The notes beneath the pieces are model-generated. The model did not search any database and was not told the origin of the DNA. It saw nothing but the letters and a program-made list of their open reading frames with translations. This document shows, in pieces, positions 2-42,162 of a stretch of DNA of 64,000 bases (the stretch's first letter is position 1; each line of letters starts with the position of its first letter). Origin of the DNA: Bacillota bacterium (GTDB lineage: Bacteria; Bacillota; Ch66; Ch109); assembly GCA_050952625.1 (NCBI GenBank), contig JBMNLH010000001.1, positions 928,001 to 992,000 of the forward strand, in the 5' to 3' direction. Both the position numbers and the translations under genes were made by a program.

Positions 2-1654
2 CGAGAAATAAACCCTGTCGATACTTTATCACCGGCGTCAGATCGTTTGAGTGAGCTACTAGAGCAGCTCGATCCGCTAGACGAAGTGGTTGAGTTAATT
101 ACCAAAGCATTGGTAGATGATCCACCAATCTCAATCCGCGAAGGTGGTCTGATTCGAAGTGGGTATGACCCGGAAGTTGATCGTCTTCGAGAGGCGGCTG
201 GAGGAGGCAAGCAATGGATTGCTGGTCTGGAAGCCCGTGAGCGGGTCCGCACCGGGATTAAATCTCTCAAGGTCGGCTTTAATAAAGTGTTTGGTTACTA
301 CCTGGAGGTGACAAAACCTAATCTACCACAAGTGCCGGCAGATTATCTGCGTAAGCAGACGTTGGCTAACGCGGAACGATTTGTGACGCCAGAATTAAAA
401 GAGTACGAGGCTTTGGTGCTAGGAGCCGAAGATCGGGTAGTCGGACTGGAATACCAAATTTTTGTTCGGGTGCGGGAGCAGGTTGGACAGCACGCCAGTC
501 GAATCCAGCGGACTGCTCGAGCTCTAGCCGAGTTAGATGTCCTCTGTTCGTTAGCGGTTGTAGCTGTCAATAATAATTATTGTAAGCCAGTAGTAGACGC
601 CGCAAATCAATTGATTATCAAAGAGGCTCGACACCCAGTAGTTGAAAAATATCTGACCGAGCAGGTTTATGTGCCGAATGATATCAGCATGGATGGTCAG
701 ACCAATTTTTTTATGTTGATTACCGGGCCCAACATGGGCGGGAAAAGCACCTACTGTCGCAGTATTGCCCTGATTTGTCTGTTGGCGCAAATGGGAAGTT
801 TTGTGCCTGCCCGAGAAGCCAAGATTGGCCTAGTCGATCGTATTTTTGCCCGAATCGGGGCTAGTGATGATCTAGGTAGCGGCCAAAGCACTTTTATGGT
901 TGAAATGAATGAAGTAGGTAACATCGTTAATACGGCCACGTCCCGCAGCTTGGTGATTCTAGATGAGGTCGGACGTGGTACCAGTACTTATGATGGATTG
1001 AGCATTGCTTGGTCACTGACAGAGTTTATCCACAATCAGATCCAGGCCCGGACTCTATTTGCTACCCACTACCACGAATTGACTGAGTTAGAAAAACAGT
1101 TGCCCGGGCTAAAGAATTATAGTGTGGCGGTTCGGGAACAAGAGGAAGGGATTGTATTTTTACATCGGGTTGTTCCCGGCGGGGTTGACCGTAGTTATGG
1201 TATTCAAGTGGCTCGCCTAGCTGGTCTTCCTAAAGACCTCATTGAACGGGCAGGGCAGATCCTACAAGAACTAGAGCAAAGGGAGGCCGGGCGGGAAAAA
1301 AGTCAGCCCTCGGAAAAGGTTATTCCTTTCAGTAGCGGTTCTGAATTGGCCCAGAAGACTAGATCAGGCTTTAGGGCAGAAGCAATGTTCAAGTCAGATT
1401 TTAAGTCTGAAAAATTAACAAAAAAGATTGTAAAAACGGCACTGCAGGATACAGCGGCTAGTTACTTTCAAGCTGATTCGGAAGCACCGGGGTCGAGTGT
1501 TTCGTTAGGTCAACCGGTTCAGTTAAGTCTACTGGAATGGGAGAGCCATCCGATCCTCGAGGAAATCAAAAATATGGATTTAATGAACCTAACTCCCCTG
1601 GAGGCACTGAATCGATTGAATGAAATCCAACAGAAATTACGCCAAAAGGGTTAA
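2..1654 (+). CDS. mutS: DNA mismatch repair protein MutS (5'-truncated by window edge)
   Basis: GPNMGGKST Walker [37 protein letters not shown]; frame open from base 2. Confidence 0.97.
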
Positions 1655-1745
1655 GAAGTGTCTGAAGACGACTCACTATGCTGCTAATCAATAATTAATC
1701 CTGACCGGAGTCATACGGTACATTAAAGAGAGGTGGAAATAAACA

Positions 1746-3441
1746 ATGTTGATAGGGATTGATGTGGGAGGAACCTACACTGACGCAGCCCTTATCCAGA
1801 ATCGCCAAGTGTTACGCTGGGCTAAGACTCCAACTCGACCAGAATTGCTTTCGTCTTTATTAGAAGTTCTGGATCAGATTATGGAGGGTGTAGACCCATC
1901 GACTGTTAAACGAGTATCCCTTAGTACCACCCTGATTACGAATTTGATTGCTGAAGATAAAGTGGAGCCGGTAGCTTTGCTGGCTATTCCCGGGCCGGGG
2001 GTCAACCCGCATAGTTTTTCAGTTTTTGATAATGCCTATTTATTAAGTGGGGCAATTGATTATCGGGGTAGAGAAACAGCGAAACTTGTTCAGGCAGAAG
2101 TGGCAGAGGTTATTCGGAAGGTAGACCAAAAGGGATTTAACAAAGTCGCCGTTGTCGGCAAGTTCTCGGTCCGTAACAATCAACATGAGCAGGCAATAGC
2201 CAAGTATGTCGCTGATCATTACCCACATATCCAGGTTGAAATGGGACATCAAACAGCCGGTCAACTTAACTTTCCACGCCGAGCCGTCACCACCCAGTTA
2301 ACCGCGGCTACTCGACCGGCTTATCGGTGCTTTATTGACCAGATACGGGCAGCTCTTAAGGAACGTCGGATTGAGGCACCAGTCTACATTTTAAAGGCAG
2401 ATGGAGGCACCTTGCCTTTGGAAAAGGCAGTCGACGTCCCAGTAGAAACCATTTTTTCCGGACCGGCCGCTAGTACCATGGGGGTACTGGCACTGACACC
2501 GGCCGGTCAAACCTCTGTGGTTGTCGATATTGGGGGTACGACGACGGATTTGGCCTTGATCCTGTCCGGTAAACCGTTGCTGTCATCCAAAGGAGCTCGG
2601 GTTAAAGAGCATTTGACTCAGGTGCGAGCCTTTGCCGTGAAATCAGTCGCTTTGGGAGGAGACAGTGCTGTTCGGGTTAAGAACGGGTATTTAGAAGTAA
2701 GCCCGGAGCGAGTGGGGCCCGGCCTGCTGTTTGGGTGGATCAGTTCCAACGCCGACAGATGCCCTGCGGGTTTTGGGGTTGGCCGATATCGGCGAAGAGG
2801 CCTTAGCCCGGGCCGCGATTCGGGAGCTTTCGGCCAAGCTGTCTTCTGAGTTGGTCAGTTCGGAAGAGGACCCGGTTAAAGCTACGGCTAGGTTGGTCTT
2901 AAATATCGTAGTTGATCGAATGATTCGCGAAATTGAGGAGATGTTTTTGGCCTGGGAACAGGAACCAGCTTATCGAGTCTGGGAAATGATGCAAAAAGAA
3001 CGAGTTCGGCCACAAAACGTGGTAGGCGTGGGTGGATCAGCCTCTTCCCTGGTTCCGCTGGTAGCCGAGCGAATGGGTTGTGTGGGAATTATTCCAGAAC
3101 ACGCCCCGGTTGCCAATGCCCTAGGAGCGGCGGTGGCCCGGCCAACCCTAGGAATAACCTTGAGGGTTGATACTGAACAAGCGTTTTATTCAATCGCAGA
3201 AGACGGAACTCAGAAAAAATCAACCAAACTAAGTAAGTATCACCTTGAAGAAGCTCAGAATCTTGCCAAGCAGTTACTCAAGGAGCGGGCCGAACAGATG
3301 GGTCTAAGTGGCTACAGCCAGGAAGCAGAAGTGACGCATAGTGAATTGTTTAATATGATCCGGGGATGGAGCCGGGTTGGTCGACTGATTGATGTTGTCG
3401 TTCAGATACCAGCCGGGCTGATTCCGGAGTGGGTTGATTGA
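1746..3441 (+). pseudogene. Hydantoinase/oxoprolinase family protein with a frameshift near 2720 (real or sequencing error)
   Basis: GIDVGGTYTD and VVDIGGTTTD in ORF 1746-2849; GG..PTPTDAL and VANALGAA continue in the other frame (2731-3441); one extra base in GGGCCCGGCC. Confidence 0.85.
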
Positions 3442-4862: not shown

Positions 4863-7122
4863 AGAAATGAAGGATGATAGAGGGATGACCAACCGAATTC
4901 GTCTGCTTGACGAAGCGACTATTAATCAAATAGCTGCTGGAGAGGTTGTAGAACGCCCGGCTTCCGCACTTAAAGAATTAATTGAGAATTCACTGGATGC
5001 CGGCAGCACCCGGTTGGATATTGAACTGGAAGAAAGCGGATTGCGCTTAATTCGGGTGACAGATAATGGTTGCGGGATGAATCCGGAAGAGGTACGCTGG
5101 TCAATTGAACGGCATGCCACCAGCAAAATTGCTTCAGCTCAGGATTTGTTGCGCATTGTCAGTTTTGGTTTTCGAGGAGAGGCTTTATCCAGCATCGCTG
5201 CGGTTTCTCGCTTGGAACTAGTCAGCCGGCCGACTGATCAGTTAGAGGGAATTCGGCTCGTGACCGAAGGCGGAGAAGTTCAGAGGATTGAGCCAGTCGG
5301 AACCCCAATCGGCACCCGTACCACGATTCGAGATATATTTTATAATCTGCCAGTTCGCAAAAAATTCCTCAAGAGTCCAGCGACCGAACTGAGGTATGCA
5401 GTTGACCTAGTCAGCCGTTTGGTTCTGGGTAATCCACAGGTGGCTTTTCGGTTGCGAGTTCCTGATCGAATCTTGATTCAATCCAGCGGGAATAGCCGTT
5501 TACTAGAAGCAATCGCCGCTGTTTATGGGTCAGAGATCGCTCAACAGATGTTAGTAGTAGGTGATGGAGAGAACGGTCAAAATGCCCCGGCTACTGCATT
5601 GGGGGCACCTAGTTTGTCTTCTCAAACAAAGAGTTGCCAGCAGAGGTCTGAGTCGAGTAAAGTCCGAGTTTGGGGTTATGTATCTGGCCCCGGTCTGACT
5701 CGAAGCAACCGGCACCAACAGTGTTTTTTGGTTAACCGTCGTTATATCCAAAGCCGACTGCTGCAGGAAGCCGTGAATGAAGCCTATCGCGGTGTAATTC
5801 CCCCTCAGCGATTTCCGTTAGTCGTTCTACACCTGGAGGTAGACCCAGAATTGATTGACGTTAACATCCATCCGGCTAAGCTACAGGTTCGTTTTCAGGA
5901 GGAAGAGGCTGTTTTTCAGGCTGTAGTCCAGGGGCTGCGACAGGCTCTCCGTCCTGCTTCAGTTATTCCGCGGTTTGATTTTGGCAAAAACAGCTTTGGC
6001 ATAAACAGCGGAGATAAAAAGGTAGAAGAGCAATACTTATCAAATCCTCGGCAAGTATCTATGGTTGAAAGCCTAACATGTTCAACCTATGACGCAACAA
6101 ATAATGCCACTGGTGTTATAAATAGTGAGCGGTCCAGTATTATAAAAAACAACCCAACAACCGATTCGTCCGATAATGCGGCTAATAGTTCATCCAATGA
6201 TTTAATAAATGGTCTAACGGACGATTCAAGAAACAACTCGATTAATAACCCAACAAGAAATTTAACGATTGACTCAACAAGTAACCCTGATACTGGCCAA
6301 TACTCTGAACAACAGCCGGGAGAAGTTGCGATTGCTGAAGTTAACCTGGATATTTATCAAGCAGAAAATCTATTAGTTGCCGGTGAAGCTGTTCAGCACC
6401 CAAAAGAGCAACAAACAAAACTTTTACCAGTACCGGACGAGATGAACGATTCTTTTGCTAACAACAATAAAATCTATAAGCCAGAGAAGCATAAATATGA
6501 AAAATTAGATTCAGTGGGCTTTGCGGGTGACCAGACAATAAAAAATACCTTAGCTGATTTGCTACCTAAGGCTCAAGTAGCCGGTACTTATATCGTGGCG
6601 GAAGGGCCAGATGGTCTTTATATTCTCGATCAGCATGCGTTGCATGAACGAATCCTTTACGAAAAAATATTGGTTGATCTTGAGGAAGATCGCCACTTCA
6701 GTCAGACCGTTCTCTACCCAGAAACGGTTGAGCTAACCCCTGAGGAAAGGGAAAGGTTTACCCAACATATTATTCCCCTTCGCAATTTGGGGTTTGTCGT
6801 TGAGCATTTTGGCGGCAATACCTTTTTGTTACGAGGGATTCCAGCCTTTATTAAAGGTAGTGGTAAAGAGGTCTTTCTTGATCTTTTGGATTACTTAGTC
6901 GACCGACCGCGATTGGACGAGCGGCGTTTATATGAAGAGATGGCAGCCCGCTTGGCCTGTCATCAGGCAATCAAAGCCGAGGAACGGTTAAACCAGGCGG
7001 AAATGGAGACCCTGGTTTTGCATATGGCCAGTTTGAGTAGTCCTTACGCTTGTCCCCATGGGCGACCAACGATCCTGAAATTGTCGTGGACCGAACTTGG
7101 ACGGCGTTTCCATAGACGTTAA
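4813..7122 (+). CDS. mutL: DNA mismatch repair endonuclease MutL (true start probably ATG at 4885)
   Basis: IAAGEVVERP, KELIENSLDA, GFRGEAL, DQHALHER, ACHQAIK, CPHGRP. Confidence 0.97.
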   Translation: MSLSNGIQRAKKKNDIKEMKDDRGMTNRIRLLDEATINQIAAGEVVERPASALKELIENSLDAGSTRLDIELEESGLRLIRVTDNGCGMNPEEVRWSIERHATSKIASAQDLLRIVSFGFRGEALSSIAAVSRLELVSRPTDQLEGIRLVTEGGEVQRIEPVGTPIGTRTTIRDIFYNLPVRKKFLKSPATELRYAVDLVSRLVLGNPQVAFRLRVPDRILIQSSGNSRLLEAIAAVYGSEIAQQMLVVGDGENGQNAPATALGAPSLSSQTKSCQQRSESSKVRVWGYVSGPGLTRSNRHQQCFLVNRRYIQSRLLQEAVNEAYRGVIPPQRFPLVVLHLEVDPELIDVNIHPAKLQVRFQEEEAVFQAVVQGLRQALRPASVIPRFDFGKNSFGINSGDKKVEEQYLSNPRQVSMVESLTCSTYDATNNATGVINSERSSIIKNNPTTDSSDNAANSSSNDLINGLTDDSRNNSINNPTRNLTIDSTSNPDTGQYSEQQPGEVAIAEVNLDIYQAENLLVAGEAVQHPKEQQTKLLPVPDEMNDSFANNNKIYKPEKHKYEKLDSVGFAGDQTIKNTLADLLPKAQVAGTYIVAEGPDGLYILDQHALHERILYEKILVDLEEDRHFSQTVLYPETVELTPEERERFTQHIIPLRNLGFVVEHFGGNTFLLRGIPAFIKGSGKEVFLDLLDYLVDRPRLDERRLYEEMAARLACHQAIKAEERLNQAEMETLVLHMASLSSPYACPHGRPTILKLSWTELGRRFHRR

Positions 7123-7200
7123 CCCTAATGAACAACAGCAAGAAAGTCTGGCGAAAAATCTAAAAGAGCGTTTAAGCAAGGCGAACTAAATCTGGAAAAG

Positions 7201-8115
7201 ATGGGAATTATTATGGAGACAATGATTGATCGGCTGCGAAAGATGGAAGCCGATTTTCGCCAAACCCAGGATATCCAAGCCCTTGTAGATACCATAATGA
7301 TTACGACTAGTCAGGACAAACCAGACCAGATAGAACGTGGTCGGACTTTAGCCAGAGAGCTTGGCTGCCGATTTTGTTGGCGCCGACAAAGACCTTTATC
7401 CCAGTTTATCGAAGATTTGCCTGTCCAGGGAATAGTGGTGGTTGAGTCTGACCGCCTTACTTTTCAATCAAGAGTAGGGCCTAAGTTCTTTTATCACCCG
7501 AATATGGCCCGGCACCGGGCCTTGAACTGGTTAAGAGGTGGAGTTGATCCTATGGTGACAGCGATGGGTCTATCACTAGGAATGACAGTGCTCGACTGTA
7601 CCTTAGGCTTGGGAAGTGATGCCTTAATCACCAGTCTAGCTGTGGGAGAGCTAGGGCTAGCGGCCGGCCTAGAGGTTTCGCCGATTCTCTCCGTGTTAGT
7701 TCAACGAGGCTTTAAGGAGTATCCATGGAGTAGTATTCCTCAAATTGGGGAATCACTACAGAAAGCAGCTGGTAGAATTCGGGTATTTAATCTAGATCAT
7801 TGCCAAGCTTTAAAACGATTAGATGACAAATCATTTGATGTAGTTTATTTTGATCCGATGTTTCAACAGTCAGTCTGGTCGGCTAAAGGGATTGCCGTGG
7901 TTCGAAACCTAGGCTGTCCTAATACCTTAGAACCGGATACCCTCTATGAGGCAGCGAGGGTGGCTCGATATCGGGTAGTTGTTAAAGAAAGAAAAGGGAG
8001 TCAGGTGTCAGCCAGACTTGGCCTAAACCGTGTAATTCAGGGAGCGAATCGAATAAGTTACGGAGTTCTGGAGGTTTCCAGGGATAGAGGTTTGGGTGAT
8101 GATGTAAGATGTTAA
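7201..8115 (+). CDS. Class I SAM-dependent methyltransferase (RsmJ-like)
   Basis: VLDCTLGLGSD and DVVYFDPMF motifs; usual position between mutL and miaA. Confidence 0.85.
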   Translation: MGIIMETMIDRLRKMEADFRQTQDIQALVDTIMITTSQDKPDQIERGRTLARELGCRFCWRRQRPLSQFIEDLPVQGIVVVESDRLTFQSRVGPKFFYHPNMARHRALNWLRGGVDPMVTAMGLSLGMTVLDCTLGLGSDALITSLAVGELGLAAGLEVSPILSVLVQRGFKEYPWSSIPQIGESLQKAAGRIRVFNLDHCQALKRLDDKSFDVVYFDPMFQQSVWSAKGIAVVRNLGCPNTLEPDTLYEAARVARYRVVVKERKGSQVSARLGLNRVIQGANRISYGVLEVSRDRGLGDDVRC

Positions 8116-9059
8116 AGCCTCTGGTGATTCTCGTGGGCCCTACCGCCACGGGAAAAAGCGCAGTCGCTATTGAGCTAGCCAGGCAGTTAAACGGAGAGAT
8201 TGTATCCGGCGACTCAACTCAGGTTTACCGAGGTTTGGATATAGGCACAGCCAAAGTTCCTCTGACCCAGAGGAAACTTGCGCCCCATCATTTAATAGAC
8301 ATTATTAATCCAGAAGATTCTTTTAGCGTCGCTGATTTTCAAAAAAGGGCAACTCAGGCCATTGAAGAGATTCACCAAAAAGGTAAGTTGCCGATCTTGG
8401 TGGGGGGAACTGGACTATATATTCGTTCTGTTGTGGATCCATATCAGTTTGCCGAAGTGGCCACTGATCTTTCGTTACGTCATTCGTTGCAGCAAGAAGC
8501 GATTCGGGTGGGTGAAGCCGAGATGCACCGGTGCCTGGGGGAGATTGATCCGCCGGCGGCTGAGCGAATTCACCCCGGAGATATTCGGCGAGTTATTAGA
8601 GCTCTAGAGGTCTATTACCTGACTGGTCAGCCTATTTCCAGTTTTCATCATCTCGGGAAGAAAACTGCTCAAAAGTACAACTCCGTTTGGATTGGTTTAA
8701 ATTTACCCAGAGAGCTGCTTTACCAAAGGATAGAGCGTCGTGTTGATGAAATGCTCGAAGCCGGTCTGGTAAACGAGGTGGAGAGGTTGCTGTCCCAGGG
8801 AGTAGATCCCGGAAGCAACTCAATGCAGGCCTTAGGTTATAAAGAGATTATCGGGTATCTAAAAGGAGAATATGATTTACCCACAGCAGTGAATTTAATT
8901 AAGCGGAATACCCGGCGCTTTGCCAAACGACAGTTGACCTGGTTTCGTCGGGATAGCCGAATTCATTGGTTTGACGTTGCCAGTTATCCCGATTTGCCGG
9001 AACTCATACAAAAAATATGTCTAGTTGTTGGCAGGACAATCAACATAAATGTAGAATAG
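8109..9059 (+). CDS. miaA: tRNA dimethylallyltransferase
   Basis: GPTATGKS, DSTQVYRGLDIGTAK, TRRFAKRQLTWF. Confidence 0.97.
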   Translation: MLKPLVILVGPTATGKSAVAIELARQLNGEIVSGDSTQVYRGLDIGTAKVPLTQRKLAPHHLIDIINPEDSFSVADFQKRATQAIEEIHQKGKLPILVGGTGLYIRSVVDPYQFAEVATDLSLRHSLQQEAIRVGEAEMHRCLGEIDPPAAERIHPGDIRRVIRALEVYYLTGQPISSFHHLGKKTAQKYNSVWIGLNLPRELLYQRIERRVDEMLEAGLVNEVERLLSQGVDPGSNSMQALGYKEIIGYLKGEYDLPTAVNLIKRNTRRFAKRQLTWFRRDSRIHWFDVASYPDLPELIQKICLVVGRTININVE

Positions 9060-9060
9060 A
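9031..9060 (+). promoter_or_regulatory. SigmaH-type promoter upstream of hfq
   Basis: GCAGGA-N17-GAATA. Confidence 0.6.
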
Positions 9061-9161
9061 TTTGGTAAACAGGAACCATCAACGAATAGCGGTTAGGCTG
9101 ACAGAATTCAAGTCAGTAATTTTCAATTAAGAAATGAAAACAGAGCTGGAGGTTTGGAAAG

Positions 9162-9410
9162 ATGACAAAGAGCCAGATTAATTTGCAAGATTTAGTGTTG
9201 AATCAGGTTCGTAAAGATAGCATTCCGGTAACCATTTACTTAATAAATGGCTTCCAACTAAAAGGCTTTATTCGTGGCTTTGATAATTTTACGGTCATCA
9301 TTGAGTTTGATGGTAAACAACAAATGGTTTATAAGCACGCTATTTCTACTATCACTCCCAGTCGACAGGTAAGTTTGTTGTCCCCGGAGCAGAATAAAGA
9401 GGTCAAATAA
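9162..9410 (+). CDS. hfq: RNA chaperone Hfq
   Basis: [29 protein letters not shown]. Confidence 0.97.
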
Positions 9411-9441
9411 CCTGCGAAAAAAATTAAACGGTTATATTCGG

Positions 9442-9472
9442 AAACCAGGCTTCTTTTGGGTCTGGTTTTTCT
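9442..9472 (+). terminator. Intrinsic terminator after hfq
   Basis: AAACCAGGC...GTCTGGTTT stem followed by T-rich tract. Confidence 0.6.
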
Positions 9473-9583
9473 TCTATTTTCTTGTTTTTTAATAATAATA
9501 TAAACAAAATAAGAAAAAGGTTGATTTGAATATTGGATAAATAACCGGAAATTAAAAAGTAGAATGGTTTAATCAATCTCAAA

Positions 9584-10231
9584 TTATTGAACGATTAGTT
9601 TTAACACAGCCTCCGTTTCAATTAAGTTTGGGACTACCAAATCAGCTTCTTTTAGTTGTTCCAGATTATTTCGGTGGGCTACTCCAATACACCGCATACC
9701 GGCAGCTTTAGCTGAACGAATTCCTGAGGGTGAGTCTTCTATAACAGTACAGTTTTGCGGTTCAATTCCCAAAAGTTTCGCAGCTTTTAGGTAGCCGTCC
9801 GGGGCCGGTTTGTGGATCGAGACGGTTTCTTTGCCAACCAAGATCGTAAACAAATGAATAATCCCGGCGGACCGCGTGACTGTTTCGATGTTTTCGATCC
9901 AGGCACTGGAGACAATGGCCAGTTTAAAATGAGGAGCTAGTTGCTGAACTAATTGAATAACCCCGGGATAAATCTTGATCTGACTTAATAAAGTGCGGAA
10001 AACAAACTGTTTTCGATAAACCCATTTCCGAGGATCTTCCTCACAGCCTAGACTTTTAAGAAGACCAGCGGCGAATACGTGGTCTTCAAGTTCGATGGCT
10101 GGGAGGCACTGTTCCCGAGAGACCGTAAGACCATGCTCCTGAAAGGTTTTTTCCCAAGCGTCAGCGTGAAACTGTTGAGTGTCAACAATCACTCCGTCAA
10201 AGTCAAAAATTACGGCTTTAGTTAATGGCAT
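9584..10231 (-). CDS. HAD family phosphatase (beta-phosphoglucomutase-like)
   Basis: FDFDGVIVD, KPAPD, IEDSPSG. Confidence 0.9.
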   Translation of the reverse strand: MPLTKAVIFDFDGVIVDTQQFHADAWEKTFQEHGLTVSREQCLPAIELEDHVFAAGLLKSLGCEEDPRKWVYRKQFVFRTLLSQIKIYPGVIQLVQQLAPHFKLAIVSSAWIENIETVTRSAGIIHLFTILVGKETVSIHKPAPDGYLKAAKLLGIEPQNCTVIEDSPSGIRSAKAAGMRCIGVAHRNNLEQLKEADLVVPNLIETEAVLKLIVQ

Positions 10232-36908: not shown

Positions 36909-37202
36909 TTATGGTTTGTATTTATTGGATGGGGAATCCATTGACAGTTCGCGCATCAGTTTTTGAATGGCTCGCTTCTCAATCCGACTAACATAACTCC
37001 TGGAGATTCCTAACATCCTAGCTATTTCTCGCTGGGTTTTTCGAAAACTGTTAAACAATCCAAAACGTAAGACTAGGACGTTTCTTTCGCGTGGGGATAG
37101 TCGTTTGACTCTTTCACGTAATCGGTCTTCCTCAAAACGTCCCTCTACTGTCTCTTGAACTATCTCCGGTTCAGTGCCTAGAACATCTAGCAGGGTGATT
37201 TC
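36909..37202 (-). CDS. sigK: sigK 3' half (spoIIIC equivalent; regions 3-4), no start codon, missed by the ORF track
   Basis: Hand translation: EITLLDVLGTEPE...LSPRERNVLVLRFGL...KTQREIARMLGISRSYVSRIEKRAIQKL; 97 codons then TAA. Confidence 0.95.
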   Translation of the reverse strand, partial: EITLLDVLGTEPEIVQETVEGRFEEDRLRERVKRLSPRERNVLVLRFGLFNSFRKTQREIARMLGISRSYVSRIEKRAIQKLMRELSMDSPSNKYKP

Positions 37203-37231
37203 GTTAACCTCTCCATGTTATCTATTGTATT
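37180..37231 (-). other. attR-like site (P-GA-B'), core GA at 37202-37201
   Basis: Minus strand ATAGATAACATGGAGAGGTTAAC-GA-AATCACCCTGCTA. Confidence 0.88.
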
Positions 37232-37247
37232 AACCCGAGACAAAAGA

Positions 37248-37510
37248 CTACTTTTTATAAATGTCTCCGCGTGGCCCGATGACCTCAATAATTATTAATT
37301 GATCTTCAATTATAAGGTCATAAATAATCCGTATGTCGCCAATGCGACCCCTGTACTTCTGATTAAAGCCCCGTAACTGCTTAATATTTGTCCGCTGAGG
37401 GGATCAACGGAAATGGCTTCAATTGCAGCCGCAATACGTTTTTGGGTAGCCCTATCAACACGTTTAAGATAGTTGCGAGGCTGAGCTAACAGCTTGACCT
37501 CATAGGTCAA
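37248..37510 (-). pseudogene. RelE/ParE toxin, frameshifted
   Basis: MTYEVKL...RIAAAIEAI..DP, then in a shifted frame IKQLRG...YRGRIGDIRIIYD...IGPRGDIYK. Confidence 0.85.
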
Positions 37511-37877
37511 GTTCTCGTTTGAGCTCATCCCAGCTAACGCCACCTTTCCGACGTTGTTCCTTACTCAAGGCTGCTATTTCATTTTCTGGCCAATCTAAGT
37601 AAATAGTATCTTGGCAGGAAGGGCAGATGAATTCATCATGCCAGGTTTTAGTTTCATCCGTGTTTGGATTATCCAGTAGATCAGCTAACACTAGGGGTGT
37701 GCTGCATGTGGTACAAAACGGGTCAATGTAGAAGGGGCTGCTCCCAGGCCGTGGTATGACCGCACTTTCTGGTTGTACCCTTTCTACTAGTTTTTCAAGA
37801 TACTTTTTGGCTCTCTCTATGTTTTGCTCCGGAAGCCTAGCAACTAGGCGGTAAAGCTCTTCCTTGGGTAAGCTCAT
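37500..37877 (-). CDS. Probable antitoxin with CxxC...CxxC insertion
   Basis: KEELYRLVARLPE N-terminus, GVSWDELKREL C-terminus, overlaps the toxin start. Confidence 0.7.
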   Translation of the reverse strand: MSLPKEELYRLVARLPEQNIERAKKYLEKLVERVQPESAVIPRPGSSPFYIDPFCTTCSTPLVLADLLDNPNTDETKTWHDEFICPSCQDTIYLDWPENEIAALSKEQRRKGGVSWDELKRELDL

Positions 37878-38026
37878 TAAAAATCATCCCTTCTGCTTTT
37901 CCCATTTTTTCTACCTTTCCCACAGTACTTTAGGTAGTTTTACCCCCTTCAACAATTAATCCAGTCTCTGGAGAGTAGCGTACATAATTATATTACCAAT
38001 TAGTTACTATAACTGTAAATTATAAT

Positions 38027-39598
38027 TCATATTAATAGATAAACATTAAGCGTAAAGTTATCAAGCCTTGCGCTTTTTTCTTTATAATACACGGCTTTAT
38101 CTACGATAGTTTTAAGTAGTGTATTTTTCTTTACTACATCGTCGGTGGCTTGGTAAGCGTCCAGGACATGCCGAATGGTCGGGATGATCTGCTGGTGGGT
38201 GCGCTCCCGTTCCTCAATTTCATTTATTTCATCCTGAACCTGTTGCAGAGACTTGCTCGCGGCCTCGATCCTCTCAGTAACAATCTTATTGCGTTCAAGG
38301 TAGGTGGGTATATCATAGACACCCTGTTCCAGAAGGTCCTGGAGGCGTGACTTTTGCTTTTGCAGTTCCTCTAGCTGCCTGGTCAAGTTCTCGATAACCG
38401 AATTAGGTATAAGCGGTTCAGCCGTGGCCGCTATCTCCCGGGCCAGTTGCTCCTGGTTCAGTTCTAAGTTTGCTAACTCTTCCTCCAAGGTTTGCAACAA
38501 CCTTTTTTCAACAAAACTGAAAAGGGACGATTTGTTGTCACATCCTGCATGGATGCATTTACACATATTAGATTTGTGTCCGGACTTTTGTTTATTGGAT
38601 TGTAAAACCATTCGGCGTCCGCATTTGCCACAAACGATCAGACCGGCTAAAGGATTTTTAGGTTTCGTCTTTGTGCGCACAACAGTATTTTTTTTAAGGT
38701 TGTTTTGTGCAGCATAAAAAATATCCTTCTCGATTAAAGGTTCATGCTTCCCTTCTACATCAATCCACTGCTCCCTGGGACGAGCATAACCTATTTTACG
38801 GGATCGATCCCGATATTTCTTTTTCCACTGAATTCGTCCGATATAAACCTCATTGCTAAGTATAAAACGAACAACAGAAGGTTCCCAAACACCTCCTCTA
38901 ACCGGGCTTTTAACCTTCATTTCATTTAATCGATTAGCAATTCTAGTACTGCCAATAGGGTTGCCATCGTTACCATTAACGTACCAGTTATAAATTAGAC
39001 GAACAATTTCAGCATCTTTATTGGGGATCAGGACCTTATCAGGCCCTCGATCGTAGCCAAAAGGGGGACGGGTCCCGATATACTTCCCGTCCTTAACCGC
39101 CATTACCCGACCCCGTTGAAGACGCTTGTTGATAATCTTCAGTTCCCGTCTAGCCATGAAAGCCTCGAATTCGCTCCATTCTTCATCGAGCTCATCATCC
39201 AAGTCATACACCTTCCGAGGGGTAATGATGAGGGTAGAGGAGGCTTTAAACGCCGCCAGAATGGTCCCCTGATCAATCATGTCGCCCCGTCCAAGCCGGT
39301 CCAGATCCATGCATAGGACCGCATCATATTCACCCGCTTCAACTTCATGGAGGAGGCGTTGCATTTCTGGACGGTCTGATATATGTTCGCCACTAACAAT
39401 TTCTTCGAAAATGGATACTACGTTAAGACGGTTGCGCTGGGCCAGTTCGGTAAGAGCTTTGCGATGCTTAGATAAAGTATCACCTTCACCCCGAGATTCA
39501 GCTTCAAAATCTGCCCGGGATTTACGAAGATACATGGCTACTTTATTAAGATCACGAGGAAAATCGGCTGGCAAGATAAACACCCCTGACGATAACAT
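38027..39598 (-). CDS. spoIVCA: Large serine recombinase, SpoIVCA-like (likely start TTG 39574)
   Basis: YLRKSR catalytic Ser, DRLGR, PFGY, Y.G recombinase domain, GLIVCGKCG zinc ribbon, coiled coil; intact. Confidence 0.92.
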   Translation of the reverse strand: MLSSGVFILPADFPRDLNKVAMYLRKSRADFEAESRGEGDTLSKHRKALTELAQRNRLNVVSIFEEIVSGEHISDRPEMQRLLHEVEAGEYDAVLCMDLDRLGRGDMIDQGTILAAFKASSTLIITPRKVYDLDDELDEEWSEFEAFMARRELKIINKRLQRGRVMAVKDGKYIGTRPPFGYDRGPDKVLIPNKDAEIVRLIYNWYVNGNDGNPIGSTRIANRLNEMKVKSPVRGGVWEPSVVRFILSNEVYIGRIQWKKKYRDRSRKIGYARPREQWIDVEGKHEPLIEKDIFYAAQNNLKKNTVVRTKTKPKNPLAGLIVCGKCGRRMVLQSNKQKSGHKSNMCKCIHAGCDNKSSLFSFVEKRLLQTLEEELANLELNQEQLAREIAATAEPLIPNSVIENLTRQLEELQKQKSRLQDLLEQGVYDIPTYLERNKIVTERIEAASKSLQQVQDEINEIEERERTHQQIIPTIRHVLDAYQATDDVVKKNTLLKTIVDKAVYYKEKSARLDNFTLNVYLLI

Positions 39599-39610
39599 CT
39601 TTATCTATTG

Positions 39611-39640
39611 TTATTCGTCGAGGAGAGGGGAATTCCTGCA
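39611..39640 (-). promoter_or_regulatory. SigmaH-type promoter of the recombinase
   Basis: GCAGGAATT-N14-GAATAA. Confidence 0.65.
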
Positions 39641-39641
39641 G

Positions 39642-39836
39642 TTACTTCCTTAACTCCAAGCGTAGCTGAATCAGTACCAACCGCAATTTCCCCATAAGTC
39701 TAATCAATTCCTCCCATAAGCGAAACTGGGTCAACGGGGAGCCAGTAAATGTTTGCTCGTTTGATAACCACCTGGCCAGCCCGAGTGTTCTTTCGACACG
39801 TGGATCGCTAGGTAAAACATCAGTCCTTTTCATCAT
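39642..39836 (-). pseudogene. ImmA/IrrE-like metalloprotease N-terminal remnant
   Basis: LPSDPR...ARWL, then shifted frame NIYWLPVDPVSL; position between integrase and repressor remnant. Confidence 0.45.
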
Positions 39837-40027
39837 AAATTCCTTGAATCCCTAGTAAATAGATTGGAAGTAGAATGTTAGGTTAATTACTAAACTTTAA
39901 TCGATCTCAAATTAGAAGTGCCTATATAAATATAAAAACCTGTCTTTTTATTATCCACAGGTTTTCAGTCGTATATCTATTTAATTTATCTAATCCTGTT
40001 AATTTCTGAATGTTTAATGACATTTTC

Positions 40028-40135
40028 TCACGCTGCCTTATTCACAAGAGCTAGGGCCTTTATCAACTTTTTTCGGTCCCATAATTCAATGTTAGAGTTT
40101 TTGGCTTCTTTCTGAGCCTGTTCAGATAAGCGAGT
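40028..40135 (-). pseudogene. C-terminal remnant of an Mrr-type restriction endonuclease
   Basis: LSEQAQKEAKNSNIELWDRKKLIKAL*. Confidence 0.55.
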
Positions 40136-40180
40136 CTTAATGTTTTTTTCGTTTTCTTGTCAGTCAAGAGAAATCGTGTA

Positions 40181-40372
40181 TTACTTTAACCGCTTAAGAA
40201 TAACGACTTCCTCTTCCTGGGTGGATAAGCGTTTGTCAATTCTTTTGATATCTTCCCAAACGTAACGGAGTTCATTTTTTATTGACGTTACATCTGCTTG
40301 GAGTAACTTTTGGCCTTCGGCCAATGTCTGGAGTTGTTGTAGTACAAGCTCCTGGAATTTCCCGTTATCCAT
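40181..40372 (-). CDS. Small coiled-coil phage-like protein (63 aa)
   Basis: AAAGGAG RBS, MDNGKFQELVLQQL... Confidence 0.6.
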   Translation of the reverse strand: MDNGKFQELVLQQLQTLAEGQKLLQADVTSIKNELRYVWEDIKRIDKRLSTQEEEVVILKRLK

Positions 40373-40409
40373 AGCAATCTCCTTTCTGGTGCCCGATACG
40401 GATCTCAAT

Positions 40410-40470
40410 TTAACGCGGCCAAGGAGATAATCGGGCGATACATTAAAAAAGTCAGCAATAACTAAACATA
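40410..40470 (-). pseudogene. Deletion remnant of an XRE-family repressor
   Basis: RBS plus ATG-TTT-AGT joined out of frame to IADFFNVSPDYLLGR. Confidence 0.6.
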
Positions 40471-40646
40471 GCATCACCTTCCAGTTTATTATACTCACAT
40501 AATGTAAGTAAAACAACGCTCCTCACGTAAGTGAAAATAATTTGAATATGGGGCCCGACTGCTTTCGATCTGTGAGTATAATAACAAATAAAGTTGCTTA
40601 CTAAAAATATCCATGATTGGAGGTAATCACTTACAAAACACACGGT

Positions 40647-40674
40647 TTGTCCTTGACCGACAACTGCATAGATC
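40647..40674 (+). promoter_or_regulatory. Mother-cell-type -10 (CATAGAT) with SpoIIID-like box
   Basis: CATAGATC at 40667; AAGGACAA (WWRRACAR) on the minus strand at 40647-40654; -35 weak. Confidence 0.4.
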
Positions 40675-40693
40675 AGTAGTGGGTGATGCCTTC

Positions 40694-40870
40694 ATGAAAC
40701 CGGAGATTAAGCTGGTCGGCGAAAAGAAAATAGAACGGACAACAATCCGCGTATTCCGTCCAGAGCTAAGTTTTGAAGAGCGAGAGTTTCGAATGAAGTT
40801 ACTGCACACTGCCGTTGCGGACTGCTATCGTTCGTCGACGAATCGGGTAGAGGGTAGCGGCACTAGTTGA
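40694..40870 (+). CDS. 58-aa protein, candidate recombination directionality factor
   Basis: GGGTGA RBS; TTIRVFRPELSFEEREFRMK; small intact gene among decayed ones. Confidence 0.55.
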   Translation: MKPEIKLVGEKKIERTTIRVFRPELSFEEREFRMKLLHTAVADCYRSSTNRVEGSGTS

Positions 40871-40910
40871 GGAGTACAAGATAGGTTGTACTAAGATAAG
40901 AATTTACGAA

Positions 40911-40945
40911 TTAAATTTTATGCATCACTAATGTAGCCTGATTAT
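40911..40945. repeat. Repeat end plus left copy of 12-bp inverted repeat (TAGCCTGATTAT, 40934-40945)
   Basis: Reverse complement ATAATCAGGCTA at 42069-42080. Confidence 0.75.
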
Positions 40946-41145
40946 CTTCTTCAGTACCGACACTTGGCCGGCTCCGAAACTATCAAAAAACCAATTACTC
41001 CCCCTAGAATCAAACTAATAATTGTGTTCTCAATCACGTTTAAACACCCTCTCTTTTTGATTTCACCTTATAAGCCCATCCGGAATAAACTGTAATTAAA
41101 CGCCAGGGTTTTTTCTCCAATTGATTTCCACATTTATCCTTCGAT

Positions 41146-41182
41146 TTGGACAGGCACTAGTTTACGATAACAACCATATTAT
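41146..41182 (+). promoter_or_regulatory. sigK promoter (sigmaK/sigmaE type) with SpoIIID box
   Basis: TTGGACAG (WWRRACAR) at 41146, AC at 41156, 17-nt spacer, CATATTAT at 41175. Confidence 0.75.
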
Positions 41183-41216
41183 GTAGAGCAAGCTCCGCTT
41201 CAAAGGGGGATTAAAT

Positions 41217-41647
41217 GTGTACCTGGATCTTACGACACCCTGGTTATCCTTTTGTTTTCCTGGATTGCTCCTTTTAGTTGGATATATCACTAATCAAACT
41301 TTCCCGCATCCACTGTCCGAAGATCAAGAAACATCATGCCTTCGACGTTTTCGCAATGGCGATGAGGAGGCTAGAAATTTACTTATTGAACATAATCTTC
41401 GGCTCGTCGCGCATATTTTAAAAAAATTTGATGGAACTGGCGAAGATACCGATGATCTTATTTCTATTGGAACCATTGGATTGATTAAAGCAATCAACAC
41501 CTTCGATCCAGATAAAGGTGCTAAACTAGCCACTTATGCTGCCCGTTGCATCGAAAACGAGATCCTAATGCATTTACGAGCATCACGGAAAAATAAAGGT
41601 GAGGTATCCCTATACGATCCTATTGGCACGGATAAAGAAGGTAATGA
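41217..41647 (+). CDS. sigK: sigK 5' half (spoIVCB equivalent) with pro-sequence; reads through to a stop at 41726 in this orientation
   Basis: [67 protein letters not shown]. Confidence 0.96.
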
Positions 41648-41676
41648 GTTAAGCTTGCTAAGTTATCTATCAATTT
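41625..41676 (+). other. attL-like site (B-GA-P'), core GA at 41646-41647
   Basis: GATAAAGAAGGTAAT-GA-GTTAAGCTTGCTAAGTTATCTAT. Confidence 0.88.
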
Positions 41677-41755
41677 ACTGTGGTCAAAAAGTCCCAGGCC
41701 AGCGGGCACAGGAGCGTTTTTCATAGTAAGGCCAGTGCAATTTGTAAGTATTAAC

Positions 41756-42045
41756 TAATTATAGCTTAACTTATTAAATTTAACTGTTTTTAATTTATTG
41801 CTAATATATCCAATAATACCTTTCCCCTGATTTGTCACACGGAATGAAAAAAGTCTCAAGCCTCCAGGTGTTATACGGACGTGCCAAGAAAACAATAGTT
41901 TTTCTCCGTCGATTCCGGTAAACGTATGCTCGTCTTTAAAACGAATTATTGTTTCTGGGCTTTCTGGAGTAAACTTACTTGAAAATTGACTAGGGTCAAA
42001 TTTTCCAGGTTGCCATCTAGTAAATTATTTGTTTAACTCATCTAA
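41756..42045 (-). pseudogene. Fragment of a hypothetical cargo protein beyond attL
   Basis: LDELNK*FTRWQPGKF...TPESPET...TF...FSWHVRITPG...IGYI; internal stop, no start. Confidence 0.5.
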
Positions 42046-42051
42046 TTAAAA

Positions 42052-42080
42052 AGTTTAATGCAACACTAATAATCAGGCTA
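42052..42080. repeat. Repeat end plus right copy of 12-bp inverted repeat
   Basis: TTTAATGCAACACTA followed by ATAATCAGGCTA. Confidence 0.75.
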
Positions 42081-42162
42081 ACGAAAGATTCTTAAACTCA
42101 ACTGGAATCTATGGTTGACTTGAGGCAATGTTTGGATGATGTTATAATGATAAACGAATTGC

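Follow-up and report, generated by a model that had tools for sequence, protein, structure and literature searches.

In the DNA analysed here, 64,000 nt from a Bacillota bacterium (GTDB lineage Bacteria; Bacillota; Ch66; Ch109; assembly GCA_050952625.1, contig JBMNLH010000001.1, positions 928,001 to 992,000 of the forward strand; hereafter the window, numbered from its first letter), a small open reading frame (ORF) of 58 codons lies between the gene of a SpoIVCA-type large serine recombinase (LSR) and the 5' part of a split sigK gene. Our analysis suggests that the encoded protein of 58 amino acids (aa) is probably the cognate recombination directionality factor (RDF) of this neighboring LSR. 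Such a role is favored because the gene is found in synteny with a clade of LSRs, because it is under purifying selection, and because co-folding places its product at the base of the LSR coiled coil. An RDF had already been proposed in the initial annotation of the window; homologues beside LSRs, co-occurrence in three of three genomes and the co-fold model now argue for that proposal, while the RDF activity itself is what we infer from them. The locus would then hold a previously unnamed member of an RDF family, in an inversion-type variant of the skin system.

The small gene and its recombinase

The ORF (40694..40870, plus strand) runs from an ATG at 40694 to a TGA at 40868-40870, and a ribosome-binding site (GGGTGAT, 40681..40687, plus strand) stands 6 nt before the ATG, with GGTG at the equivalent place in the homologous loci L020 and L023. 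The intact 58-aa ORF with ribosome-binding site described in the initial annotation was therefore verified, and the first part of the interval that it had marked, 40647-40693, is DNA upstream of the gene. A longer open frame of 85 aa, from an ATG at 40613 that lacks a ribosome-binding site, encloses the ORF; because a TGA shuts the frame of L020 just 5' of the equivalent start, the conserved start is the M-K-P at 40694. Over the 49 codons that align with the L020 homologue, 18, 16 and 33 differences fall at codon positions 1, 2 and 3, synonymous sites are saturated (pS 0.92) and pN is 0.33; between the L020 and L026 homologues, dN/dS is 0.36. By these comparisons the 58-aa ORF is a real gene under purifying selection.

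The LSR gene (38027..39598, minus strand, 522 aa plus stop) was assigned from its Pfam and PHROG matches, its nearest solved structure and its model. It matches the Pfam families Resolvase (2.2e-18), Recombinase (6.1e-22) and Zn_ribbon_recom (1.1e-5) as well as the phrog_95 integrase (E 1.6e-112), and its nearest solved relative is the SPbeta integrase (E 4e-53). The closest genomic relatives, 66-67% identical, are found in two genomes of another genus (loci L020 and L022 are the same DNA, from G193; L023 and L026 are both from G278). Elements of about 2.2 kb in L020 and L026 split sigK at the same codon, with both halves on one strand, and are of the classical excision type. Their order is sigK 5' part, a 74-76-aa ORF, LSR, small-ORF homologue and sigK 3' part; the homologue and the LSR point away from each other, their starts being about 100 nt apart, and no phage genes remain in either element. 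The 74-76-aa ORF (ending in ...EIRRRCEC; 7540-7764 of L020, minus strand; 3610-3840 of L026, plus strand), located between the sigK 5' part and the LSR 3' end, matched no Pfam family and has no counterpart in the window, where the best tblastn matches (E 0.26 and 0.68) both lie outside the element. This leaves the small ORF as the only accessory gene common to both lineages. We found no single inversion that would turn the L020 gene order into that of the window.

The small protein could also be an unrelated leftover of phage early genes, a Cro- or Xis-like regulator or a protein of some other role, that merely rides with the LSR. Beside the gene lie a truncated XRE-like gene and an inverted repeat that resembles an operator and contains two TATAAT boxes, which is the usual setting of an early gene, and the product of the small gene matches no curated family. 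However, the L020 and L026 elements have kept the small gene beside the LSR without any phage gene, no helix-turn-helix (HTH) or excisionase family was matched, and the co-fold with the LSR described below passes while its controls score 0.00. We consider this origin unlikely.

Another candidate for the true RDF is a 64-aa ORF just upstream of the LSR (39642..39836, minus strand), in which case the 58-aa protein would do something else. Its frame is open, and both its size and its position resemble those of Skr, a protein of 64 aa whose gene shares the strand of spoIVCA, begins upstream of it and has a 101-nt overlap with it (PMC6957869). However, 400 other genomes yielded no credible relative of this ORF (best E 0.0087, the match containing stops), no Pfam or PHROG family fits it, and its best ESM Atlas score of 0.85 is uninformative. 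Nor could the L020 and L026 elements accommodate it, as the LSR starts about 100 nt from the small ORF there. It is very improbable that the 64-aa ORF is the factor sought.

The presence of the 58-aa gene was also followed across genomes. Of 401 genomes sampled from the phylum, 13 encode an LSR that scores E <= 1e-80, and the family profile built on the small protein gave four matches at E <= 0.01. Three of these correspond to all three genomes with an LSR at least 66% identical to that of the window, and the fourth (G357, E 0.0083, within a 291-aa frame) was treated as a chance match. Within the class of the window the gene was detected in one of seven genomes, and three of the remaining ones have an intact sigK as judged by open-frame length. 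In the window itself the small gene lies inside the invertible segment with the LSR, and homologues stand beside LSRs in four other loci (L020, L026, L043 and L045).

Named families gave little help in placing the protein. Searches of Pfam, PHROGs and NCBIfam returned 0 families and no match to their excisionase/Xis HTH models, tblastn against 50,697 phage records gave no match, and all ESM Atlas scores were below 0.9. Pfam TnpW (PF14202) was not matched by the window protein at E <= 0.1; its comparison with the relative P0005 gave E 0.12 (12.6 bits, below the cut-off of 25). A TnpW identity, suggested by the "nearest named" ESM Atlas cluster, was rejected as that score of 0.75 is at chance level and the Pfam cut-off was missed. 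The ICEBs1 excisionase model reached E 0.085 with the small ORF of L043, at 12.6 bits for a cut-off of 100.

Relatives were found by direct searches. A word-indexed search returned P0002 at 73% identity, and an exhaustive profile search of 1.84 billion representatives returned six proteins at E <= 0.001. The window's own protein is among the six, and P0006, a repeat protein, was dropped as a spurious match, which leaves P0003, P0004, P0005 and P0007 as true relatives. L019, the sole return of a metagenome scan, was a chance match antisense to an unrelated gene. The family shares the core I-G-x-T-x-I-R-V-x-R-P-E-h-S-x-E-E-R-x-x-R-M-K-x-L-x-x-A-x-x-x-C-Y, and R19, P23, E29, R30 and A40 are invariant in its alignment. 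Homology, which the initial annotation had left undemonstrated, is now provided by homologues located beside the closest LSR relatives, in minimal sigK elements.

A wider search with a motif pattern picked one small ORF each in L043, L045 and L021, each in divergent orientation to the LSR and at most a few hundred nt from the LSR start; the LSRs of L043 and L045 are 44-48% identical to the window LSR. The family profile aligned with the intermediate P0205 (hhalign E 4.5e-7, probability 92.6%), and P0205 in turn matched the L045 ORF (identical to P0138; BLASTP E 4e-10) and the Bacillus cereus-group type (P0157; BLASTP E 3e-15). With P0205 as the link, the L043 and L045 relatives are probably homologous to the family. 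When the family profile was compared directly with the 84-aa ORF of L021 (hhalign E 0.012, probability 3.7%) and with P0138, both results were indecisive. When extended with these seeds, the profile retrieved 116 proteins at E <= 0.01; wherever their sources supply a name, it is "hypothetical protein" or an evident misnomer.

Predicted binding to the recombinase

To place a possible contact, the LSR was modelled with a mean predicted local distance difference test score (pLDDT) of 88.5. The model contains zinc-ribbon strands (residues 320-347), a coiled coil with two outward helices (359-390 and 398-423) and a return helix (429-483), and then a helix (487-497) and two strands (498-504 and 515-520). 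Residues 305-522 (63-row alignment) were co-folded with the 58-aa protein (7-row alignment). Interaction prediction scores from aligned errors (ipSAE) were 0.75, 0.78 and 0.76, with 0.00 for the best of three controls; the mark applied is reached by 116 of 157 solved complexes and by 2 of 215 mismatched pairs. At least 89% of contacts are common to the runs, and the pLDDT of the partner is at least 74. The co-fold supports binding of the small protein to its cognate LSR.

The predicted interface on the LSR comprises residues 361-373, 466-497 and 511-522, that is, the start of helix 359-390, the end of helix 429-483, helix 487-497 and strand 515-520. According to the model, this is the base of the LSR coiled coil on the second DNA-binding domain (DBD2), at the junction of DBD2 and coiled coil. 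Strand 13-23 of the small protein pairs with the last LSR strand (511-522), and its helix 30-47 packs on residues 361-373 and 466-497. Four of the five invariant family residues (R19, P23, R30 and A40) fall in the predicted interface. Co-folding with the recombinase coiled coil, which the initial annotation had suggested, gave a prediction that passes its controls (ipSAE 0.76 against 0.00 for the best control) with the interface at the base of that coiled coil. The same base is described as the predicted binding place of all known RDFs despite their unrelated folds (PMC12286644).

The closest structural comparison is with SprB (YotN) of SPbeta, whose C-terminal helix is essential and, in cryo-EM structures, sits between the coiled-coil base and DBD2 (PMC11722253). 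Like the window protein, SprB has 58 aa, the interface predicted here is at the same place, and the window LSR is nearest to the SPbeta integrase SprA. The two small proteins differ in having no detectable sequence similarity: the family profile, run against PDB chains including the integrase-YotN fusion (9dxd), gave no match to the YotN chain at E <= 10. SPbeta is moreover an active phage that is excised.

The split sigK gene and the geometry of inversion

The sigK gene is present in a single copy in the genome, the next best match being 55% identical, and that copy is split. Its 5' part (pro-sequence and region 2; 41217..41647, plus strand; Sigma70_r2 1.6e-19) ends at the crossover, and its 3' part (region 4, with the stop codon; 36909..37200, minus strand; Sigma70_r4 2.2e-16) lies on the other side of the LSR; both were delimited by alignment with the uninterrupted locus L032. 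Alignment with L020 places the crossover at a GA within AAYGA. The attL-type site (41617..41677, plus strand; repeat D6) consists of a sigK B arm, the central GA at 41646-41647 and a P' arm, and reads ...GGTAAT GA GTTAAGCTTGCTAAGTTATCTAT on the plus strand. The attR-type site (37172..37232, minus strand; from arm comparison) consists of a P arm, the central GA (TC at 37201-37202 of the plus strand) and a sigK B' arm, and reads ATAGATAACATGGAGAGGTTAAC GA AATCACCCTGCTAGAT... on the minus strand. When the outer arms are joined to rebuild attP, the dyad arms match at 18/23 (21/30) around the GA; the two sigK (attB) arms match each other at only 9/30.

As the central GA lies on opposite strands at the two sites, and the sigK halves likewise, recombination would invert 37203-41645 and excise nothing. 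Within this invertible segment of about 4.4 kb (37203..41645) lie the 5' part of sigK with its promoter, the small ORF and the LSR; the segment is defined by the site geometry, and its orientation is bridged by contigs of three other runs. The predicted product, GGT AAT GA|A ATC ACC CTG CTA GAT, encodes GNEITLLDVL and would restore an intact sigK on the minus strand.

A natural counterpart of that product is found in G001, a genome of the same genus, whose locus L032 (3,073 nt) has an uninterrupted sigK of 239 aa with GNEITLQDVL at the junction. L032 aligned to the window in three blocks: 1-798 with 42865-42069 (reverse, 95% identity), 787-1499 with 40934-41647 (forward, 91%) and 1494-3073 with 37206-35627 (reverse, 95%). 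The three blocks fit an inversion exactly, and flipping 37203-41645 restores the G001 order of HMG-CoA-lyase-like gene, sigK, spacer and yqeG-like gene. The flip assumed in the initial annotation is thus borne out in its geometry, by the head-to-head att sites and by this alignment. After the flip, about 4.15 kb of foreign DNA (37207-40933 and 41648-42068) would remain in the sigK-yqeG spacer. Its smaller part, a second block of element DNA (41648..42068) between attL and the yqeG-side chromosome, holds the P' arm and a start-less minus-strand ORF remnant, and homology with G001 resumes at 42069. Of the features that mark a skin element, the locus has a split sigK and a SpoIVCA-type LSR; directly oriented attL and attR sites with circular excision are replaced here by inverted sites.

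Contigs of three further runs, which come from different studies, span the split arrangement and show no differences from it: X4 (records 14 and 15, both sites covered), X15 (records 1 and 7) and X9 (records 27 and 28). Loose contig ends at 41648 were considered as a rejoined form and rejected, since they continue as sigK of other organisms. Because the split state is the assembled form in X4, X9 and X15, a constitutively made RDF is unlikely. In run X9, a 465-nt contig (depth 9.3) joins ...42068, GTG and then 39979-40336 on the same strand. A palindrome, CACTAGTG, arises at the junction, and 42068 is the exact element border; depth in that run is 8.5-9.3 over 39968-41395 and near 5 in the neighboring parts. 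This join could come from a circle, a tandem copy or a second strain arranged differently, between which we could not tell.

These contigs also bear on two readings in which the small gene is not needed. Some LSRs act in both directions alone, TnpX being an example, and the window LSR might likewise flip the segment both ways, or its own timed expression might set the switch. In B. subtilis spoIVCA itself is under sigma-E and SpoIIID (PMC10745906). However, the make-up of the att sites is asymmetric (attP arms 18/23, attB arms 9/30), and asymmetric attL/attR sites block the reaction without an RDF in this recombinase family (PMC12286644, PMC5025042). Moreover, the contigs of all three DNA runs have the split state only, and the small gene is under purifying selection. 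A switch without any RDF is hence most improbable. The other reading is that of a dead rearrangement, with sigK permanently broken and the small ORF a relic; several neighboring genes are indeed decayed, and no rejoined form was found among contigs. Yet the LSR and the small ORF are undamaged, as are the two halves of sigK and the two att sites, the genome has no other sigK and encodes spoIIID and spoIVA, and the arrangement recurs unchanged in the three other runs. Of a dead locus we see hardly any chance.

The decay of the neighborhood, noted in the initial annotation, was found to be partial. A RelE-like gene (37310-37543; phrog_1213, E 0.0011) is frameshifted, an XRE-like ORF (40181-40516; phrog_8, E 1.9e-5) lacks its N-terminal part, and a minus-strand frame (41758-42027) has no start; the LSR and a 125-aa ORF, on the other hand, are intact. 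The latter, a zinc-ribbon ORF ending in ...GVSWDELKRELDL, overlaps the RelE-like toxin gene within 37310-37877 (minus strand). As the C-terminal toxin motif KYRGRIGDIRIIYDL is in another frame than the 125-aa ORF, we take the toxin half of a toxin-antitoxin pair to be frameshifted. Between the truncated XRE-like gene and the small ORF sits a 23-nt inverted repeat (I2, 83% complementary; 40486-40508 and 40562-40584), with TGTGAGTATAATAA on both strands, that resembles the divergent promoter/operator of a phage immunity switch.

The ends of the element are marked by repeats (D9 and D14). At 40913..40945, about 20 nt that are repeated at 42051-42070 are followed by 12 nt of spacer that recur inverted at 42070-42081. 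The border repeats AAATTTTATGCATCACTAAT and AAGTTTAATGCAACACTAAT are identical at 16 of 20 positions and occupy the two borders that synteny with G001 defines; after each come 11-12 nt of shared spacer sequence (TAATCAGGCTA), in opposite orientations. In the flipped state, with sigK intact, they would form terminal inverted repeats with a direct target duplication. Because these ends look transposon-like with a target duplication, the sequence suggests that a unit of LSR, RDF and attP reached the sigK-yqeG spacer without using its own att sites. The foreign DNA contains no transposase.

Expression, proposed switch and known systems

Upstream of the small gene, the two motifs named in the initial annotation are both present: CATAGAT at 40667-40673 and a WWRRACAR match at exactly 40647-40654 on the minus strand (AAGGACAA). 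The latter forms part of a SpoIIID-type box (40647..40656, minus strand) that reads TTGTCCTTGA on the plus strand and is invariant at 10 of 10 columns in the window, L020 and L023. The former begins a -10-like element, CATAGATCA (40667..40675, plus strand), of which ATAGATCA is invariant in the relatives. In the alignment of these three upstream regions, the islands TTGTCCTTGA and ATAGATCA are followed by the kept GGTG. Because synonymous sites are saturated between the window and L020, the conservation of box and -10 exceeds chance. Despite the distance of 1.1 kb to the LSR in the window, the islands have remained with the small gene. Both spoIIID (139 bits, above its cut-off) and spoIVA occur in the genome. 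Ahead of sigK, another WWRRACAR match (TTGGACAG, 41146-41153) is followed by CATATTAT. Whichever way the switch is oriented, 347 nt separate the small gene from sigK downstream of it on the same strand, an arrangement that may allow read-through into sigK.

No sigma factor could be assigned: inspection by eye of the spoIIID, spoIVA and sigK upstream regions pointed to none, the first two gave no clear sigma-E pattern, and a sigma-70 scan found one weak site only, fewer than in shuffles. In the RNA library of run X19, contigs reach parts of the LSR, of the 125-aa ORF and of the sigK 3' part and leave the small ORF uncovered; such contigs can show neither expression nor its absence. The mother-cell control proposed in the initial annotation is thus partly supported by the sequence. 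The conserved SpoIIID-type box, the CATA-type -10 and the presence of spoIIID speak for it, while the motif is at chance frequency, a -35 is missing and the sigma factor could not be assigned. Mother-cell timing of the flip is plausible on the same grounds.

Taken together, these elements would favor a model where the germ line carries sigK split, with the promoter and 5' part (plus strand) and the 3' part (minus strand) at facing attL- and attR-type sites, and where the LSR alone keeps the split state. Once made, the small protein would bind the LSR at the junction of zinc ribbon and coiled coil through its strand 13-23 and helix 30-47. This binding would redirect the coiled coil, as with known RDFs, and so permit attL x attR synapsis. 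With inverted sites the product would be a flip of 37203-41645, without a circle, leaving an intact sigK on the minus strand. The SpoIIID-type box and CATA-type -10 would switch the gene on in the mother cell, confining the flip to the terminal cell.

A wider claim is quite possible, and we put it forward tentatively: the locus may act as a natural DNA latch of the set-reset kind that governs a developmental sigma factor. An LSR, an RDF and attP, together a mini-skin, would have been fixed in the spacer upstream of sigK; the integrase alone would keep the 4.4-kb segment inverted in the germ line, and the RDF, encoded just ahead of the sigK promoter on its strand and under a SpoIIID-type box, would flip it back in the mother cell with nothing lost. 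The small protein may also be the first recognised member of a widespread RDF family whose members serve SpoIVCA-type recombinases in elements that interrupt several sporulation genes, among them the spoVFB element of the Bacillus cereus group.

Several points weigh against an RDF under such control. Co-occurrence with SpoIVCA homologues holds in the three of three genomes with an LSR at least 66% identical; beyond them, the family profile gave no match at E <= 0.01 beside any of the 10 LSRs of 36-48% identity. In L044 (G102:C31), an LSR 47% identical to that of the window abuts a sigK 5' part ending at the same residue (query 17-143), and no family member was detected within 1.5 kb of this LSR, despite sigK being split at the same site. 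The family has few relatives, so that the co-occurrence counts rest on two lineages, and the motif pattern of the wider search was written after the family had been seen. In the window, the small gene is 1.1 kb from the LSR and not adjacent to it. The co-fold pass could in part be a learned likeness, as the SPbeta integrase-RDF complex has been solved. WWRRACAR by itself occurs at chance frequency, with 104 matches in the window for 86.5 +/- 9.2 expected and 4 of 100 shuffles reaching 104. The -10 agrees only partly with the sigma-E/sigma-K consensus, with no matching -35. Finally, no contig in the runs examined has a rejoined sigK or attP form, though contigs drop rare variants.

Among characterized factors, CD1234 of the Clostridioides difficile skin element is a close parallel. 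It has 72 aa, is described as lacking database similarity, binds its LSR (CD1231) and is required for the recombination of attL with attR, whereas attP x attB recombination proceeds without it, and its gene is transcribed from a sigma-E promoter with a SpoIIID box upstream (PMC5025042). By this description it resembles the window protein in being a small protein of a sigK-splitting element with a SpoIIID-type box upstream. The difference is that skinCd leaves as a circle whereas the window sites are inverted, and that expression and activity of CD1234 were shown by experiment, whereas the window protein is known from sequence and model. Skr, known here by description only, is likewise a small protein acting on the same target gene. 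The crossover is apparently the same: the B. subtilis skin recombines at an AATGA motif near nt 423 of sigK (PMC10745906), and the window has GGTAATGAG at 41640-41648. Unlike skr, the window gene is divergent from the LSR. GirX, of the gin element (GirX/GirC) in gerE of B. cereus ATCC 10987, is an RDF of 42 aa that was found as the sole gene conserved with its recombinase (PMC5595907). Compared by description, it shares with our case a minimal, non-prophage element with a serine recombinase and a very small RDF, and the same conservation logic led to it; its target gene is another one, and its element is excised.

By analogy, the closest functional counterpart is the engineered integrase/RDF inversion latch. 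With phiC31 integrase and its RDF, a segment between inverted att sites is flipped one way by the integrase alone and flipped back by integrase plus RDF (PMC6511857), and integrase/RDF inversion assays have also been described (PMC12286644). Those latches are synthetic, whereas the window locus would be a natural chromosomal switch for a developmental sigma factor. In the literature searched, which did not extend to a 2013 Molecular Microbiology paper on vfbin/vrin, we found no report of natural sigK reconstitution by inversion. The preprint of the Galperin survey contains no word beginning with "inver", PMC4191935 contains none besides "inverted repeat", and in the available parts of PMC5025042 and PMC12286644 inversion appears in plasmid assays and in assays, respectively, only.

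Other split or interrupted sporulation genes were seen along the way. In L043 (G074:C77), the LSR, 48% identical to that of the window, follows an early-stopping gene for dipicolinate synthase subunit B. The small-protein relative there, of 57-82 aa, is divergent from the LSR, and the same protein is common in the Bacillus cereus group as "hypothetical protein." This locus, of which the first gene half alone was seen, matches the spoVFB-intervening element vfbin of B. weihenstephanensis as described in PMC4191935. L021 (positions 5565-9624 in an Alicyclobacillaceae metagenome-assembled genome) has an LSR 45% identical to the window's and the divergent 84-aa ORF, with an IGETRVTVHSP...EER motif that resembles that of the family, followed by a truncated YhbH-like ORF and a second LSR; from its sequence it may be another split sporulation gene. 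In two other genera of the window's family, L035 (G003:C52) and L033 (G004:C183), the sigK 3' open frames are only 136-137 aa long. A different serine recombinase directly precedes the sigK 3' part (starting MLMHLRVVKK...) on the same strand in G003, which by its sequence is an independent skin-type insertion at another position of sigK. L044 also has, upstream, a 125-aa coiled-coil ORF resembling the C-terminal part of the window ORF 40181-40516.

RDFs are described as hard to find, with neither sequence nor position in common (PMC12286644), and they are the missing half of most serine-integrase tools; the candidate described here is backed by synteny, selection and co-folding. The locus would give a compact natural set of integrase, RDF and att sites already working as an inversion switch. 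A survey of 15 skin elements reports no common gene besides spoIVCA (10.1101/2022.02.25.481979), a view that a recurring partner gene of SpoIVCA-type LSRs would refine. The family, with at least 116 unnamed proteins, could supply RDFs for many of these recombinases. For the organism itself, the inversion topology would show that a sporulation gene can be reconstituted without loss of the element.

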